This document shows, piece after piece, positions 3,292-56,833 of a DNA stretch of 61,816 nucleotides. The notes beneath the pieces are model-generated. The model was not told the origin of the DNA. It saw only the letters and a program-made list of their open reading frames with translations, and did not search any database. Both the position numbers and the translations under genes were made by a program. Location of the stretch: the NCBI GenBank assembly GCA_030606805.1, contig JAUWFS010000001.1:1-61816 (forward strand), in the 5' to 3' direction. Positions within the stretch are counted from its first letter, which is position 1. Every line of letters begins with the position of its first letter. The DNA is from Deltaproteobacteria bacterium (lineage in GTDB: Bacteria > Desulfobacterota > Desulfobacteria > Desulfobacterales > ETH-SRB1).

Positions 3292-3849
3292 ATGGCTGAA
3301 AAGATACCTTATATAACAACTGAATCTGGCGGTCTCCGAGCGTGGGTAGATGGTTATGTGTTAACTGAATATGGTAACTCTGTCTGCTGTTTATCCGTTT
3401 TTGGGGCTATTGGAGCTGTCCAGGCTCTTTGTGCAAGCCTTGTTTCTGGTCGGGACGTTCAGTTGTGGGGAAACGGTGAGTTTGGGACGGAGCTGCATAA
3501 GAAATGGGGCAAGGTCAAATATCGCATGATTTCAAAACGATTGCCGTCAAAGATGTTGAGCATGATAGTACTGATAGATGAAGCTGTTTTATCCCATGAT
3601 CAGGATTTTGTCATTATTAGCAGGGAACATAATCCGGTAGATTTGTTGTATAGAAACTTAATTTACAGGTCAGAGTTACCTTTACATAGCGCATGGAAGA
3701 AGTGGCTTTGGGCAACTTTTGAGTGTTTTGAATGGATGACTAAATTACCGAGTTATAGAATGTGTGGGCATGAGATTTCATTTGATGATGATGAACTGGC
3801 CGAGAAAATCAAGGTTGGAATTAGAAGCGGGAGAATTCCTAAAATATGA
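3292..3849 (+). CDS. hypothetical protein
   Basis: 185 aa. Start is ATG 3292, or GTG 3289. Confidence 0.7.
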   Translation: MAEKIPYITTESGGLRAWVDGYVLTEYGNSVCCLSVFGAIGAVQALCASLVSGRDVQLWGNGEFGTELHKKWGKVKYRMISKRLPSKMLSMIVLIDEAVLSHDQDFVIISREHNPVDLLYRNLIYRSELPLHSAWKKWLWATFECFEWMTKLPSYRMCGHEISFDDDELAEKIKVGIRSGRIPKI

Positions 3850-31769: not shown

Positions 31770-31904
31770 ATGCCTAAAGGAGATGGAACAGGCCCCCCAA
31801 AAGGTGCAACTGGACCTAAAAATGGTAGGGGAAGAGGGAAAGGCCAAGCAACCGGTGCTGGTGTAGGTCGCAAAAAAGGTGGAAAGAAAGGAGCTTGTAA
31901 ATAA
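31770..31904 (+). CDS. DUF5320-like Gly-rich basic peptide (44 aa)
   Basis: AAGGAGGTGAG SD upstream. Translates to MPKGDGTGPPKGATGP...GACK. The track shows only the antisense shadow 31742..31924. Confidence 0.55.
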   Translation: MPKGDGTGPPKGATGPKNGRGRGKGQATGAGVGRKKGGKKGACK

Positions 31905-44569: not shown

Positions 44570-44954
44570 GTGGATAAGCCAAAAATAGTTGTTTTGTGTG
44601 GTTCATCAAAATTTGTTGATATAATGGCTGTGTGCGCATGGCTGATTGAGCGCGATGAACAGGCGATGACGATGGGGCTCCACTTATTGCCCTCAATGGT
44701 ACTGTAAAGATCTTGTAAGCGATCATTTGGCAGAGGCTGAAGGGGTCGCTAACGAGATGGACCAGCTTCATCTTCGAAAGATTGACAGAGCTGATGAGAT
44801 TTTTGTGGTAAACTTCGAAGATTATATTGGATTTAGTACCAGAAATGAAATTCTATATGCCCGGTCCAAGGATAAACGGCTTCGGTGGTATTCTCATGAT
44901 CCAATCGGGAAAGCGGTACAAAATCTTTTACACTCGGAAAAGTTGAAAAGATGA
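44570..44954 (+). pseudogene. frameshifted gene (CGSxKF Rossmann-like, nucleoside deoxyribosyltransferase-like family, tentative)
   Basis: N-half KIVVLCGSSKFVD runs in frame 2 to 44707. C-half DQLHLRKIDRADEIFVVN..IGFSTRNEILYA is in frame 0, open from 44670. The shift lies near TTGCCCTCAA, about 44687-44696. Confidence 0.55.
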
Positions 44955-45259
44955 ATTGCAAACATTGTCATGACCGTGAAATTGTTATTAAAAGCAGAAA
45001 ACTGTGTAAAAAATGTTATGACTATTTACGCAGGCAAAACCGCGTAGAAGAGTATCCCAAGTCAGATTTATTCCGCAAACGGCTGAATGACAAATATAGT
45101 GGAATGATAACTAAACTGAGACTTTGTCCGCATAATCCAAACTGCAATTTAAGCAAGATAGGCCGAGAGTATAAAATTTCAAGGGAAAGGGTAAGGCAGA
45201 TATTTAACAAACTTTTTAATAAAAAATACAGCCTATGTTTGAGTACGAAAATACAATAA
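44951..45259 (+). CDS. zinc-finger + sigma-70 region-4-like HTH protein (candidate late regulator)
   Basis: CKHCHD..CKKCYDYLRR, then LSKIGREYKISRERVRQIFNK. Confidence 0.6.
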   Translation: MNCKHCHDREIVIKSRKLCKKCYDYLRRQNRVEEYPKSDLFRKRLNDKYSGMITKLRLCPHNPNCNLSKIGREYKISRERVRQIFNKLFNKKYSLCLSTKIQ

Positions 45260-45440
45260 GAATCCAATGAAGACGGAGCAACCTTTGTGCCTCGGTGTAC
45301 AAAATGTGGACGTTTTGTTAAGGCTGACGAGACAATCATGAGTAGCGATGAATGTGGATTAAAAGATCAGCCTAACGCTGCATGCTCAAAACAAATATGA
45401 TTTTTGAAGGTTTTATGTAATTATTGACGTGGTGAACCAA

Positions 45441-45480
45441 AGGTGAAAACATGCGAAAAGAGGTGAAAACATGCGAAAAA
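45441..45480 (+). repeat. tandem 20-bp repeat (AGGTGAAAACATGCGAAAAR x2)
   Basis: Units 45441..45460 and 45461..45480 match at 19 of 20 positions. They are flanked by inverted GGTGAAC (45431) / GTTCACC (45487). Confidence 0.9.
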
Positions 45481-45548: not shown

Positions 45549-46250
45549 ATGTCGAAAAAGGTGAAAGTGAAATCAAAAGGTAAGGTTAATGGTGCTAAGC
45601 GGAGTTGGCGGCATCGTCAGGCATGGCAGAAATTGCCTCGTTATCCTTTATGGGCTGCTATTTATGCCCGGCTGGGTGCAGGGGAAGCATGTTATTCTTT
45701 GGCGAGATGGTGGAAATCTAAAGGCGAGATGAAGCACCTGGCTGTAAAGACCCTGGCAAAATATCTTGGTCTTTATAGACTACACGAGATTCCGGCAGAT
45801 GACAAAAAAGCATTAACCCACGTTGATACTCATTATATCAATACCTTAGTTCAAGGGTATGCTAATGAAATCGAGGTATTTGAAGAGCTCGCTGTGCTTA
45901 TAAATTTGCATAAAAGACGGTTAGGAGTTGTCATAGAAAAAGAGGAACAGCTCAAATTTCCAATTGAAATGACCAATAAAATAGCAGAGCAACTCCATAA
46001 TTTACTTAAAGACTATTTTGAATTTCAGGTAAAAACCGGCAGGCTTCCCCAGGTCCCGCAGAAATTTGACCATTCGTTTTCAATGGGTGGTAGGGACAAT
46101 GATGACAATGGAGTGGTAAAGACTGAGAGGGATGAACTGCAAAGGAAACGAAAAATTGCCGAAGTATCCCTTCTTCTAACAAAGCTTGCATCGCAAGGCG
46201 CATCAAAGGCTATTCCCAAAGAGTTGCCCGAAGGAAAAGACTATGCTTGA
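45549..46250 (+). CDS. candidate terminase small subunit
   Basis: Immediately upstream of TerL and overlapping it. Basic N-terminus. The call is positional only. Confidence 0.45.
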   Translation: MSKKVKVKSKGKVNGAKRSWRHRQAWQKLPRYPLWAAIYARLGAGEACYSLARWWKSKGEMKHLAVKTLAKYLGLYRLHEIPADDKKALTHVDTHYINTLVQGYANEIEVFEELAVLINLHKRRLGVVIEKEEQLKFPIEMTNKIAEQLHNLLKDYFEFQVKTGRLPQVPQKFDHSFSMGGRDNDDNGVVKTERDELQRKRKIAEVSLLLTKLASQGASKAIPKELPEGKDYA

Positions 46251-48604: not shown

Positions 48605-49312
48605 ATGACAAGATTAGGATTAAAATATAAAGAATGTCTGCATTGTGGGCAGAAGATTGAAATAAAAATAAGGAGAGATTTAATAAGAAAAAAATTTTGT
48701 TGCCGGAGTTGTGCGGGAAAATATCATTCAGAAAAAAAATCTATATTTGATTGGAACAATAAAGAAGCATCGGAAAAATTAAAAAAAGCACTAAGAAAGC
48801 CGCACAGAATTACAAAAGCATTGCTGAAAGCTGCTAAAGAAAGAGGATTAAAAAAAAGAGGAAAAAAAATAAATAGTGATCTTATTGTTTGTCAGCATTG
48901 TGGCAAAGAATTTTTTATATCACATTGTCGGAATAATGGAAAGATTAGCAAATGGGGACAGAAGCAAATAAGTCAATATTGTAGCAATAAATGTAGACAG
49001 CTTGCTTCTCGTAAACCAGATAAATTAAAAATTGATAAAACTCGATTAAAAGAGTGGCGGCTGAAAATATTTGAACGAGATAGTTATATTTGTCAGAAAT
49101 GTGGATGTAAAAGAAAAAGATTGTTACAGGCGCATCATAAAAAATCTAAAGAGAGATATCCAGAGATAGCTTATGATATTGATAATGGAGAAACTCTTTG
49201 TATTTATTGTCATATGAAAGAACATCCAAAATTAAAAAATTTCATATTGTCATCTTTAAAACTTAAATTGGAGCAACCATATGCCTCGGAAATTCCGGGA
49301 ATGTGTCCGTAA
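48605..49312 (+). CDS. HNH endonuclease (packaging-module associated)
   Basis: CQKCGC....QAHHKKSKERYPE...NGETLCIYCHMKEH, plus N-terminal Cys4 repeats. Confidence 0.85.
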   Translation: MTRLGLKYKECLHCGQKIEIKIRRDLIRKKFCCRSCAGKYHSEKKSIFDWNNKEASEKLKKALRKPHRITKALLKAAKERGLKKRGKKINSDLIVCQHCGKEFFISHCRNNGKISKWGQKQISQYCSNKCRQLASRKPDKLKIDKTRLKEWRLKIFERDSYICQKCGCKRKRLLQAHHKKSKERYPEIAYDIDNGETLCIYCHMKEHPKLKNFILSSLKLKLEQPYASEIPGMCP

Positions 49313-49823
49313 AGGAGGCCGCGTACGAACAAAGACATGGGATAGCAAATATATGCATATTTGTTATATCGATGGTAAATCCTACGCAGGGGAAGTGCAT
49401 ACCAAAAAGAAGAAAAAGAAAAAGAAAAAAAAGATGAAAGCAAAAAACATATACAAACCAGTGAACATCAAAACTGTTTTTTCTGGTTTAGGCACTTTCA
49501 CTGATAATAAGAAAGTCTGGAGAATAACCTCTTTAATTCATCACGTAAAAGAACAAAATCTTGAAGTTTTTGATTTACCATTATGCGGCATAAATTTAGC
49601 AACTACTGTTTGGAGCTCTGGTGATTTAAAGATTATAGACTTTGCTAAACACTGGAAGCGCGCTGATGAAGTTAGTTTAGATGATCCTATAATTTTGGAT
49701 GAAGATGGATTTATCATGGACGGTTGGCATAGAGTGGCAAAGGCTTTGTTTTTAGGGTTGTCTACTATCAAGGCAGTAAGATTTGATGTAACTCCTGACT
49801 GTGATTATGTACGAACCGGATAG
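49281..49823 (+). CDS. fusion-like ORF: small basic N-domain, K10 tract, ParB/Srx-like C-domain
   Basis: MPRKFRECVRKGG...KKKKKKKKKK-MKAKN..., then ILDEDGFIMDGWHRVAKAL. An internal ATG at 49432 is a possible separate start. Confidence 0.55.
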   Translation: MPRKFRECVRKGGRVRTKTWDSKYMHICYIDGKSYAGEVHTKKKKKKKKKKMKAKNIYKPVNIKTVFSGLGTFTDNKKVWRITSLIHHVKEQNLEVFDLPLCGINLATTVWSSGDLKIIDFAKHWKRADEVSLDDPIILDEDGFIMDGWHRVAKALFLGLSTIKAVRFDVTPDCDYVRTG

Positions 49824-51395: not shown

Positions 51396-51557
51396 GTTTA
51401 CGTTGAAATTTCAAACCCTTAACTTACCCTATTAAAAAACAATGTTTTTTAGATTTTACTCTATTTTTTTATATACTTAAGCATCACTAAAAATGCCGTT
51501 TTTCAGAAAAATCGAGGCTTACAGAGGCTCTAAGTAAGCCAAAAGATAAAGCAACAA

Positions 51558-54176: not shown

Positions 54177-54545
54177 ATGATCACTGACGAAAATAATATC
54201 CCATTGCCTTTCGAATGTACTCAAGATATGAAAGATTACCTTGATTTAATTGATGAGCAATATCTGCGATGTAAACAAGCAAGAATATCCAGACTTAGTG
54301 TTGAATGGGGAATTTGGTCACGTAAAATGAATCTTGAGCTAAGATTCAAAATTAAGGCAGATAATGATCGAAGTGTCGGTTATCGTTATATTTTTAAGTA
54401 CTGGACTATCAAATCTCAATTATTGGAACTTTATTACAGGTCCAAAATTTTAGATTTGGGTAAAAAGAAAAAACTTGCTAAAATGGCAAAAATGTTGAAA
54501 GAAACAATTTTATCTGGTGAAGATGAATTAAGAGATGAAAAATAA
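54177..54545 (+). CDS. hypothetical protein
   Basis: 122 aa ORF. Confidence 0.55.
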   Translation: MITDENNIPLPFECTQDMKDYLDLIDEQYLRCKQARISRLSVEWGIWSRKMNLELRFKIKADNDRSVGYRYIFKYWTIKSQLLELYYRSKILDLGKKKKLAKMAKMLKETILSGEDELRDEK

Positions 54546-54577
54546 TAAAACCGGAAGGTTTCTACATTTGGATAAAA

Positions 54578-54633
54578 CCGTAAGCCAGAAAGCTGAATTA
54601 TAAATTAATTAAACCGCGGTTGGAAGACCGTGA
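54578..54633 (+). promoter_or_regulatory. conserved leader element copy A (upstream of scaffold gene)
   Basis: CCGTAAGCCAGAAAGCTGA...CGCGGT-TGGAAG-ACCGTG hairpin. Matches copy B. Confidence 0.5.
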
Positions 54634-54644
54634 AGGAGGAAATC

Positions 54645-55463
54645 ATGGCGTGGAAAGTTATAGAAGGAAAAGAGGGACAGGCAAAAGCAACAGAAGTAGG
54701 AGAAAACGGACATCCCTTGTGGATACCGGAGGAAGAGGGTGCTGATACGACACCTGTTGAGGTGGATTGGGCGTCAGCTTTGCTGACGATTTCTCGGTTG
54801 AATGGTGAAAACAAAGAGCGAAGGGAAAAGGGGGAATTACTTACCACTCAGCTTACGGAAGCAACTGATAAGCTCAAAGGATTTGGAGAACTTGATCCCA
54901 AGGCTGCGCAGGAAGCTATTACAAAGCTGGCGAGCATAGATCAAGGCGACCTATTGACTGCTGATAAAGTGGAATCTTTTAAGGCATCAATTCTACAAGC
55001 AGCACAGGCCGAAAGTGCTAATCTTGTTAAAGGTTATGACGAGAAAATTGGAGGTCTTGAAAACACTGTTGTGGAAAAAGATAACCAAATCTATAAATTG
55101 GTCGTGTCCAATGCATTTGCCAATTCACCGTATGTTAAAAAGCTGCAGGTTCCTGTGGACATGGTTGAATCCTTTTTTGCGCATTATTTTAAGGTTGAAG
55201 AAGGTCTGCCTGTTGGTCATATGAATGGCAATAAGATCAATTCGCGAAAGAATCCAGGCAATACTGCTATTTTCGATGAGGCGATTGAAATTATTGTTGA
55301 ACAGTATCCGGATAAAGATCGATTGTTTCCCGGTGCTGGTGGTGGTTCAGGTGGCCAAGGTGGTTCAGGTCAAGGCATGTTGGGAGCGGACCAAATTAAA
55401 GGTATGTCTTTGGCTGAATATGAAAAGGCTAAAGGTGAAGGCCGCATTCCCAGCGTGAAGTGA
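54645..55463 (+). CDS. scaffolding protein (positional/compositional)
   Basis: ATG 54645 follows GAAGGAGGA. Helical and acidic, with a Gly-rich tail GAGGGSGGQGGSGQG. Directly upstream of the MCP gene. Confidence 0.6.
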   Translation: MAWKVIEGKEGQAKATEVGENGHPLWIPEEEGADTTPVEVDWASALLTISRLNGENKERREKGELLTTQLTEATDKLKGFGELDPKAAQEAITKLASIDQGDLLTADKVESFKASILQAAQAESANLVKGYDEKIGGLENTVVEKDNQIYKLVVSNAFANSPYVKKLQVPVDMVESFFAHYFKVEEGLPVGHMNGNKINSRKNPGNTAIFDEAIEIIVEQYPDKDRLFPGAGGGSGGQGGSGQGMLGADQIKGMSLAEYEKAKGEGRIPSVK

Positions 55464-55496
55464 GAGAATAAAGACTGGAAAGTCTATTGATAAGAG

Positions 55497-55550
55497 CCGT
55501 AAGCCAGAAGGCTGAGTTTAATAAATTTAACCATGATTGGAAGATCATGA
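55497..55550 (+). promoter_or_regulatory. conserved leader element copy B (upstream of major capsid gene)
   Basis: CCGTAAGCCAGAAGGCTGA...CATGAT-TGGAAG-ATCATG hairpin. Confidence 0.5.
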
Positions 55551-55603
55551 GAGTATTGGAATGATTTTATTAATATGATTTTCTATGAAAGGAGAAATTT
55601 ATT

Positions 55604-56752
55604 ATGGCTTATACAATTAATGATTTAGCCGCAGTAGCGCCTATATTACTGCGGGAAGGGATAGTGGCATTAAGAGAAAATGCGATTATGATTAGGCAGT
55701 GTCAGTTTGATGTCTCTGAGGAAGCTTCCAAAAAAGGAGCAACCATCGATGTAGAACTTCCTAATACAATTCCGGCACAGGAGGTGAATGTTGCCTCAGC
55801 AAATCCTGCTACTCCTCTTGCTCCAACGGTTGTTTCTATCAAGTTGGATCACTGGTGGGAAGCTAAGTTCTCTATGAGTGATAAGGATTTGACTGAGGTG
55901 GAAAGTGGAATTCTACCGATGTCTGCTTCAGAGGCTATCAAATCCCTGGCAAACAAAGTCGATATTTCTGCACTTGGTTTGCATGTAGATATCTACGGAC
56001 AACACGGTGTTGCCGGTACCACTCCGGATGCAGTGGCCGATATTACAGGCAGTCGAAAAGTATTGAATGCGCAGTTGGCTTCGTTAGGTGATCGAACCCT
56101 GTTACTTGACGTAGAAGCAGAAGCCAAATTCCTTGGTTTAAGTGCCTTCCATAATTTTGACAAGGTCGGAGACACGAAAGCTCTGGAAGATGGTTCCCTG
56201 GGTCGCAAGTTTGGGTTTGATATCCATATGGATCAGAATATGTTGGTTCATACCAAAGGGACGTTGGCTGTAAGCCAGGATGATATTGCCGCTAAGGCGA
56301 TCTATGCTATCGGTATCAAAGAAGTGGTATTGGATCGTTCTGCAGATGCGGGAACTTTGACCGGCACTCTGGTAAAAGGGGATCTGATCAAGTTTGCCGG
56401 AAGCGCTGCGTCCCATGTTATTACTGAATTGGCTACTGCCGCAGCAAATGAAATTACGGCCAAGTTTGAGCCGGGCCTGAAAGTGGCTACGGAAGATGGA
56501 ACTGTTGTAACGCTTACGGACACCCATACTGTCAATTTGGGATTCCAACGCCAGGCATTTTGCTTTGTGTCTCGGCCTTTGGTAGTGGCGGATGGGTTAG
56601 GCTCAATTATTGAGGCTATTGTTGATCCGATTTCCGGGCTGACTTTACGGATAGAAATCAGCCGTAATAACAAGCAAATTGAATGGGCATATGATATCCT
56701 GTGGGGTGTTAAGACCATCCGTCGTGAATTGGCCATGCGGCTTTTAGGATAA
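55604..56752 (+). CDS. major capsid protein
   Basis: 382 aa with an AAAGGAGAA SD. It follows the scaffold gene and is followed by a strong hairpin. Confidence 0.75.
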   Translation: MAYTINDLAAVAPILLREGIVALRENAIMIRQCQFDVSEEASKKGATIDVELPNTIPAQEVNVASANPATPLAPTVVSIKLDHWWEAKFSMSDKDLTEVESGILPMSASEAIKSLANKVDISALGLHVDIYGQHGVAGTTPDAVADITGSRKVLNAQLASLGDRTLLLDVEAEAKFLGLSAFHNFDKVGDTKALEDGSLGRKFGFDIHMDQNMLVHTKGTLAVSQDDIAAKAIYAIGIKEVVLDRSADAGTLTGTLVKGDLIKFAGSAASHVITELATAAANEITAKFEPGLKVATEDGTVVTLTDTHTVNLGFQRQAFCFVSRPLVVADGLGSIIEAIVDPISGLTLRIEISRNNKQIEWAYDILWGVKTIRRELAMRLLG

Positions 56753-56776
56753 TGCGGTCAGGCATGCAAAAGCGGA

Positions 56777-56815
56777 TTTTAACGCAGTGGAGCAATCAAA
56801 TCCACTGCGTTAAAA
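56777..56815 (+). terminator. 15-bp perfect hairpin after the capsid gene (terminator/attenuator)
   Basis: TTTTAACGCAGTGGA-N9-TCCACTGCGTTAAAA with no clear U-tract. Confidence 0.55.
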
Positions 56816-56833
56816 CCGAAAGGAGATTTTATC

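Follow-up and report, generated by a model that had tools for sequence, protein, structure and literature searches.

A conserved hairpin-bearing RNA leader upstream of two head genes, scaffold and major capsid, in an uncultivated phage

The stretch of DNA analysed here (the window) is one whole contig of 61,816 bases with 39% G+C, JAUWFS010000001.1, from a 3.1-Mb metagenome bin of a Deltaproteobacteria bacterium. It carries late genes of a tailed phage, has all its genes on the plus strand and is truncated at the 3' end. Two non-coding stretches, one 5' of the scaffolding protein gene and the other 5' of the major capsid protein gene, contain two copies of a leader element that, on the evidence of sequence comparison, is an RNA signal of about 90 nucleotides with two or three small hairpins. 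As judged from the same comparison, this leader cassette is a conserved cis-acting RNA and not a DNA site. Tentatively, we favour its reading as a post-transcriptional cassette for processing or stabilisation of the message, which would raise and co-ordinate the output of scaffold and capsid; the cassette probably sets the amount of the two most abundant head proteins. Tailed phages need hundreds of scaffold and coat subunits for each dozen portal subunits, all encoded on one late transcript, and to our knowledge the way in which this ratio is set is known for only a few model phages. Within one clade of uncultivated phages, precisely the scaffold and capsid genes are now marked by a covariation-supported RNA signal.

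Results

Anatomy of the two leaders

The scaffolding protein gene (54645-55463), served by copy A of the element, was identified by its match to DUF6651 (PF20356, E-value 1.4e-20) and to the head scaffolding protein family phrog_206, and the major capsid protein gene (55604-56752), served by copy B, by its match to the P22 coat type (PF11651, E-value 3.2e-25). An earlier, sequence-only reading of this DNA had placed copy A at 54578-54633 and copy B at 55497-55550. Both sequences are exactly as quoted there, and the full element is larger, with one hairpin (H1) further upstream and another (H2) inside a conserved 19-mer. The order in each copy is H1, H2 within the 19-mer, an AU-rich linker with an invariant AAYUU, and H3 (R, purine; Y, pyrimidine). 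The shared 19-mer, CCGTAAGCCAGAARGCTGA, occurs twice in 61.8 kb even if three mismatches are allowed, whereas no occurrence is expected from 100 shuffles. Four of the five plus-strand hairpins in the whole window that carry a GGAA loop on a stem of at least 5 base pairs (bp) sit in these two leaders.

In the scaffold leader, H1 (AAACC-GGAA-GGTTT, 54548..54561), detected by the hairpin scan with a fold energy of −4.2 kcal/mol (z score −2.3), is abutted by an open reading frame of 122 residues; its counterparts in related phages have other stems and RGAA loops. The conserved box and H2 (54578..54599) consist of YYGUA, the stem AGC/GCU around CAGAAA, and then GAAUU, with a GUA/GAA internal loop at the base of H2; the core pairs of this hairpin covary over the 18 copies aligned. 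The single-stranded AU-rich linker, delimited from the alignments (54599..54614), varies in length and sequence among the aligned copies except for AAYUU and its final C. H3 follows (CGCGGUU-GGAA-GACCGUG, 54615..54632, −9.9 kcal/mol), being 91% paired in the alignment with four pairs that show changes on both sides, and right after it come the Shine-Dalgarno sequence AAGGAGG (54633-54639) and the scaffold ATG at 54645 (together 54633..54647).

The capsid leader is built in the same order from H1 (AGACU-GGAA-AGUCU, 55472..55485, −5.2 kcal/mol, z score −4.1), the conserved box with H2 (AGCC-AGAA-GGCU with flanks GUA/GAG, 55497..55518, −5.3 kcal/mol), the AU-rich linker UUUAAUAAAUUUAAC containing AAYUU (55518..55531) and H3 (CAUGAUU-GGAA-GAUCAUG, 55532..55549, −6.9 kcal/mol). 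An AU-rich tail (55556..55606) then leads to the capsid gene, including an unstructured UUGGAAU (55556-55562), the Shine-Dalgarno sequence GAAAGGAGA (55587-55595) and the ATG at 55604. The UUGGAAU constitutes a fourth RGAA motif, and in relatives this position of the tail is occupied by UGGAAA, CGGAAA or AAGAAC. The TGGAAG loop described earlier as common to the last hairpin of both copies, on different but compensating stems, was confirmed; the hairpins stand, but their stems, taken then as 6 bp, are extended by an inner U-G pair to 7 bp closed by a GGAA tetraloop.

The two kinds of leader differ in the position of H3 relative to the ribosome-binding site. The gap between H3 and AAGGAGG is one nucleotide in seven of nine scaffold leaders and two nucleotides in that of contig L150, and the scaffold leader of L152 has a weaker ribosome-binding sequence. 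In capsid leaders 45-60 nucleotides of AU-rich sequence intervene. A stable hairpin directly 5' of a strong ribosome-binding site is therefore a feature of the scaffold leaders and not of the capsid leaders. In copy B (55541-55584) the 3' arm of H3, GGAAGAUCAUGA, could also pair with AUAUGAUUUUCU just 5' of the ribosome-binding site (whole leader −36.5 kcal/mol, z score −4.7); this alternative is conserved in L147 and L148, but the L143 group lacks it, and it was not adopted. An upstream start codon at the GUG or AUG that ends H3 was likewise rejected: in three leaders its frame is that of the scaffold gene, in others it is not, and the short frames in the capsid leaders are not conserved either.

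Occurrence of the element in related phages

A protein search with the capsid protein gave a graded series of homologues, from 98% down to 40% identity, and the DNA around twelve of them was taken for comparison. The same leader architecture was present in every contig with a capsid protein at least 62% identical to that of the window. Seven contigs (L143, L145, L147, L148, L151, L152 and L154) have two copies each, always 5' of the scaffold (DUF6651) and capsid genes; L150 has a single copy 5' of the scaffold gene, its capsid gene following 26 nucleotides further on; and L169, a truncated contig, has the capsid-gene copy. Among these relatives the stems differ lineage by lineage while the loops are always GGAA or AGAA. 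The element was absent from L153, L155 and L156, in which the capsid protein is 55-60% identical.

A covariance model covering H2, the linker and H3 was built from 16 copies. Run over the window with filters off, it gave exactly two matches, of 83.1 and 69.7 bits, the next best scoring 12.4 bits. Related strings had been pointed out before the MuF-like gene (51533) and the TerS candidate (45535); they do exist but are not copies of the element, having neither a hairpin nor a match to the model at E<=10 with filters off. No match was found 5' of terminase, portal or tail genes in the relatives' loci of 17-21 kb, in 133 loci of distant capsid relatives, or in 100 genomes related to the host bin. 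Since the element is missing both from these genomes and from the rest of the host bin itself, it belongs to the phage. The sequence-only reading had named absence from related phages as grounds for refutation; with the element present in them, that refutation fails.

Searches of wider collections gave no further members. Rfam 15 had no match at the gathering threshold over the window, and at E<=10 within 54400-55750 only chance-level matches to unrelated families. An exact 17-mer search of IMG/VR gave five matches, which were set aside as chance occurrences in unrelated, mostly coding contexts without a downstream hairpin. No close relative was detected by the capsid protein search of IMG/VR, and an alignment-based scan of IMG/VR, JGI metagenomes and GTDB genomes found only relatives of at most 48% identity, none with the element. 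The collection of phage records held no similar DNA and no close cultured phage. Parallels in Rfam include the phage leader motifs GP20-a (RF02991) and GP20-b (RF03003), which are likewise structured leaders of phage structural genes found comparatively, though no Rfam 15 family matches here.

Evidence for a selected structure in plus-strand RNA

The alignment of 18 copies, corresponding to about six independent lineages (effective number 5.7), was used to examine pairing. Ninety percent of the cells in paired columns were paired, and 9 of the 14 pairs change on both sides; in slid controls, with partners moved by 1-3 columns, 26-45% were paired. RNAalifold, unprompted, returned the same two helices, with compensatory changes in 8 of 10 pairs. 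G-U pairs account for 46 of the 251 paired cells (18%), and as these would be A-C on the other strand, the structure is confined to coding-strand RNA. In comparisons of the window with its relatives, 33-53% of fourfold-degenerate sites of the capsid gene are identical, compared with 62-84% of positions in the leader core; with the degenerate sites saturated and the core conserved, the leader must be under purifying selection.

Three observations argue for an RNA rather than a DNA site. The two copies within one genome have different stems, and a single DNA-binding protein could not read both; the G-U pairs restrict the structure to one strand; and a promoter consensus fits no common register. 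Four possible roles had been listed at the outset, a late promoter, an activator site, an RNA processing site and a translational-control element. The last two are favoured by the covariation, the many G-U pairs and the hairpins recovered independently by RNAalifold, while the first two fit poorly.

Further evidence was provided by the sequences 5' of the scaffold leader. A textbook intrinsic terminator lies directly 5' of H1 or H2 of this leader in L147, L148, L151, L152 and L154, and that of L152 was confirmed by the terminator scan. In L152, H2 keeps its fold and an AGAA loop on a completely different stem, which starts within the U tract of the terminator. Since hairpins 3' of a terminator keep fold and loop with unrelated stems, read-through RNA matters in those phages. 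The same five contigs have an extra module 5' of the scaffold leader (L147 8831-8940, L148 1990-2095, L151 1290-1400, L152 8940-9010 and L154 3800-3880), in the order TATAAT-rich sequence, conserved GAACGC-RGAA (or GAGA) box and strong intrinsic terminator, a layout like that of pR'-tR'; the window is without this module.

Invariant loops on variable stems

All 50 GC-containing hairpins in the 18 leaders have RGAA loops, 28 of them GGAA and 22 AGAA. The base preceding the loop is always a pyrimidine and that following it always a purine, giving C-G, U-G, U-A or unpaired C/A, and G and A at the first loop position interchange at the same hairpin in close relatives, for instance in H1 of L147 and L148. 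Other invariant positions are GU on the 5' side and GA on the 3' side of H2, the YYGU and GAA flanks, AAYUU in the linker, and the first C and last UG of H3. The base of H2 shows GUA/GAA, or GUA/GAG/GAU, in 12 of 18 copies, and the scaffold leaders of the L143 group have regular GUUC/GAAC pairs instead; the internal loop GUA/GAA resembles, in sequence only, a bulged-G (sarcin-ricin or loop E type) motif.

Invariant loops in an element whose other parts all turn over suggest a reader. Of the two loop sequences, GGAA belongs to the GNRA tetraloops and AGAA does not, and therefore thermodynamic stability alone does not explain the constraint. From loops held at Y-RGAA-R we infer a sequence-specific reading partner, which should be open to pull-down.

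Hairpin leaders in more distant phages

Hairpins with a shared loop of their own, two or three per leader, were also found at the same position in distant capsid relatives. A GAGA loop occurs three times 5' of the scaffold gene in L012 (about 3300-3435); UGA/AGA loops (L153, 9104-9206) and a GAG loop (L017, 3370-3500) occur 5' of a scaffold or capsid gene; and a GGU loop occurs upstream of the capsid gene in L015, L016 and L085. The last leader hairpin abuts the ribosome-binding site in L085 and L153. Hairpin leaders coded by their loops, placed 5' of virion genes, may be a general and uncatalogued layer of phage late-gene control.

Discussion

A proposed processing or stabilisation cassette

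The reading as a processing or stabilisation cassette, tentatively placed first, would act as follows. The AU-rich linker with AAYUU, which separates H2 from H3, would be the place of a cut or of another new 5' end. The downstream segment, encoding scaffold or capsid, would then start with H3 as a protective 5' hairpin beside a strong ribosome-binding site, the 3' end of the upstream segment would be capped by H1 and H2, and the stable segment would be closed by a long hairpin 3' of the capsid gene. The reading is preferred because the cassette stands only 5' of the genes for the two proteins of highest copy number and because one cassette can serve both genes, as indicated by L150, in which a single cassette precedes a scaffold gene with the capsid gene 26 nucleotides after it. 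The abutment of H3 on AAGGAGG in seven scaffold leaders, the hairpin free of a U tract after the capsid gene, and the presence of RNase Y and two RNase G genes in the host bin were also counted in its favour.

The long hairpin directly 3' of the capsid gene (56773..56818) has about 18 bp and no U tract, with −30 kcal/mol and a z score of −4.8. Long hairpins occur at the same place in six relatives, and a comparable stem-loop is annotated 3' of the coat gene in the P22 record, which mentions HK97 and lambda as further cases. It may be a 3' boundary or stabiliser of the capsid message, or an RNase III site. In the same region (56752-56818) a small hairpin that overlaps the stop codon of the capsid gene, AUGC-GGUCAG-GCAU, is conserved in seven relatives.

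Known processing and stabiliser modules, such as the Bacillus subtilis cggR-gapA site cut by RNase Y, the 5' stabilisers of aprE and ermC and the RNase III sites of phage SP82, resemble the cassette in the AU-rich strand between hairpins within an operon, in a downstream product that would start with a hairpin by the ribosome-binding site, and in the unequal output that would result from one transcript. Unlike the cassette they have no invariant loop common to all hairpins, and in the cassette the cleavage itself is conjectural. Several further points weigh against this reading. A passive stabiliser would not need invariant loops, and we know of no endonuclease that reads RGAA loops. RNase E prefers RN/WUU, which AAYUU matches only in part. 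The distance between H3 and the ribosome-binding site, 1-2 nucleotides in scaffold leaders against 45-60 in capsid leaders, is not shared, and the terminator directly 5' of the scaffold cassette in five relatives would fit a promoter equally well. The RNase Y consensus is weak (10.1101/2023.03.12.532304).

A possible translational operator

The main competing explanation, possible though on balance unlikely, is a translational operator, at which an RNA-binding regulator on the RGAA hairpins throttles or activates translation of scaffold and coat together. The regulator might come from the phage, with free scaffold or coat protein perhaps closing an autogenous loop, or from the host, CsrA being one example; once bound at H3 it would block or expose the neighbouring ribosome-binding site. 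Invariant loops on freely varying stems are the pattern of operators read by proteins, including boxB and the coat-protein operators of RNA phages, and the lineage-specific shared loops of the distant relatives suggest a reader that co-evolves with them. Contact of H3 with the Shine-Dalgarno sequence is seen in the scaffold leaders but not in the capsid leaders, with their 45-60 intervening nucleotides, and the capsid gene of L150 has no cassette of its own. Casjens and co-workers reportedly found in 1985 that the P22 scaffolding protein regulates its own synthesis after transcription; P22, however, lacks such leaders, its gene 8 starting 13 nucleotides after the portal gene and gene 5 overlapping the stop codon of gene 8. 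No RNA-binding candidate gene co-occurring with the element was detected.

For CsrA in particular, the host bin encodes the protein and most loops contain GGA. The leaders and sponges bound by CsrA/RsmA (hag, glgC and hcnA; CsrB and RsmZ) also have several short hairpins with GGA loops and a further GGA in the Shine-Dalgarno sequence. CsrA needs GGA, yet 22 of the 50 loops (44%) are AGAA, with free G/A swaps in close relatives; the conserved part is GAA rather than GGA, and the element is absent from host genomes. ANTAR targets (EutV, AmiR and NasR) offer another precedent, in that two small tandem hairpins with identical hexaloops and a variable linker are read by one protein. Their loops, however, have A at position 1 and G at position 4, compared with Y-R-G-A-A-R here, and their second hairpin competes with a terminator, whereas H3 abuts a ribosome-binding site or an AU-rich tail.

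In a more specific form, which we regard as decidedly unlikely, the RGAA hairpins would be operators for a phage RNA-binding protein, possibly free scaffold or coat, that couples head-protein synthesis to capsid assembly, each lineage having evolved its own pair of loop and reader. If the operator reading were true, the cassette would be for tailed phages what the coat-protein operators are for RNA phages, and would supply a defined RNA target for the scaffold autoregulation described genetically for P22.

A possible late promoter

It is improbable that the cassette is a late promoter, with the conserved box and linker as DNA signals for host polymerase and a phage factor (for example the protein encoded at 44951-45259) and with a transcription start at H3 that would give a 5'-terminal hairpin as at T7 phi9 and phi10. 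The position 5' of the two most highly expressed genes is that of phi9 and phi10, and the intrinsic terminator directly upstream in five relatives (L147, L148, L151, L152 and L154) gives a classical layout of terminator followed by promoter. The hexamer TAAATT or TAATTT is often found in the linker 3-5 nucleotides 5' of H3, but a hexamer with A at position 2 and T at position 6 fits no single register, TTAATTAAAC in four leaders failing to provide one; no −35-like element lies at 16-18 nucleotides, and the consensus scan calls no site in either leader. A phage zinc-ribbon protein with a Sigma70_r4-like helix-turn-helix is encoded just 5' of the TerS gene and might serve as the factor, whereas no phage RNA polymerase was found among the large open reading frames. 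In addition, a start at H3 would place H1 and H2 upstream of it, although both show RNA-type covariation including G-U pairs, and the fold of H2 is kept in L152. The scarcity of TTGACA-type promoters in the late region, remarked upon in the sequence-only reading, turned out to be uninformative, as 42 sigma-70-like sites were counted there against 46 expected by chance.

The similarity to T7 goes beyond position. Around phi9, phi10 and the leader of gene 10, as here, a repeated signal stands 5' of exactly the scaffold and capsid genes, with a hairpin and then a strong ribosome-binding site, and a strong hairpin lies 3' of the capsid gene (T-phi after gene 10). Unlike T7, the window has no phage polymerase among the genes found, covarying RNA hairpins take the place of a fixed 23-bp duplex, and no promoter consensus could be placed.

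Passive hairpins and antitermination as unlikely readings

Passive hairpins without a specific reader, that is, GNRA-type structures which insulate translation or slow down exonucleases and share a loop as a relic of duplication, are very doubtful as the whole explanation. Hairpins 5' of ribosome-binding sites are common message stabilisers, as in ompA, aprE and T7 gene 10, and GGAA is a GNRA tetraloop, but the AGAA of 22 in 50 loops is not. Moreover, the loops stay RGAA though every stem position turns over and synonymous sites are saturated, and YYGU, GAA, AAYUU and the terminal UG of H3 are invariant too.

Least probable of all is a nut- or put-like site of processive antitermination, at which the hairpins would load a factor on, or act on, polymerase for read-through in the head-tail operon: an AU-rich spacer followed by a short hairpin whose loop is of the GNRA type does recall lambda nutL, which consists of boxA (AAAAAUUAA) and then boxB with a GAAGA loop, but neither leader contains a boxA-like sequence (CGCUCUUA or GCUCUUUA), nor does any of the 18 aligned copies, the hairpins close on tetraloops (GGAA/AGAA) or hexaloops (CAGAAA) and not on the boxB pentaloop, the relatives' terminator is upstream and not downstream of the cassette, the post-capsid hairpin has no U tract and downstream terminators are not above chance in the consensus scan, and two copies 900 nucleotides apart are hard to justify for a loading site. 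What the cassette and nut have in common is a conserved, purine-rich, GNRA-like loop on a variable stem, an AU-rich spacer, action in cis on a phage message and one copy per unit. They differ in the loop (Y-RGAA-R instead of a GAAGA or GAAAA pentaloop), in the two or three hairpins per site, and in the location 5' of late head genes and, in relatives, 3' of a terminator; an N-like protein was not identified.

In practical terms, the covariance model is useful for the annotation of head modules in metagenomic phages, and the cassette is a compact candidate expression element.

Other late genes and candidate factors

No Pfam or PHROG match was obtained for the open reading frame called the TerS candidate (45549-46250), and no Pfam match for the candidates for large terminase (647 residues) and portal (471 residues); the late region also holds an HNH endonuclease gene and genes for a MuF-like protein and a type IB topoisomerase. 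An SbcC-like protein (phrog_77) is among the products of the largest open reading frames. None of the large open reading frames was recognised as a phage RNA polymerase in the Pfam and PHROG searches, and as the contig is cut at its 3' end this absence is not proven.

An open reading frame of 102 residues 5' of the TerS candidate (44951-45259) encodes an N-terminal zinc ribbon and a Sigma70_r4-like helix-turn-helix, which scored 23.3 bits against a cut-off of 24.1. A tandem repeat, GGTGAAAACATGCGAAAA twice, lies between it and the TerS gene (45430-45480). The protein and the repeat are a candidate late activator and its site; in phages of Gram-positive bacteria the late activators of the RinA/ArpU family hold the position just 5' of TerS. 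A promoter-like sequence, TTTAGA-18-TATACT (51448-51477), is located in the 287-nucleotide gap 5' of the MuF-like gene, and may be an internal late promoter upstream of both cassettes.

As for possible partners of the RNA, the CsrA of the host bin (PF02599, 73.9 bits) is encoded on contig C235, the membership of the phage in this bin being unproven. Among phage genes, no small RNA-binding gene was found to co-occur with the element, and the genes 5' of the scaffold gene vary by sublineage. An arginine- and glycine-rich open reading frame of 44 residues (MPKGDGTGPPKGATGPKNGRGRGKG..., 31770-31904), without a Pfam match, is about 50% identical to counterparts in L143 and L145, which there directly follow the gene for the large terminase, and its product could bind nucleic acid. 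In an open reading frame of 180 residues (49281-49823), the first 49 residues (MPRKFRECVRKGGRVRTKT...) end in a lysine run and correspond to a separate gene of 50 residues 5' of the portal gene in L143, L145 and L147; the longer frame is either a fusion or the result of a miscalled start. Both the RGG-rich 44-residue frame and the basic 50-residue protein are found in only some carriers of the element, and L152 is missing the conserved basic protein. Genes of the IS605 OrfB/TnpB type lie on the opposite strand within the tail modules of L143 (17659-18789) and L147 (14995-16104).

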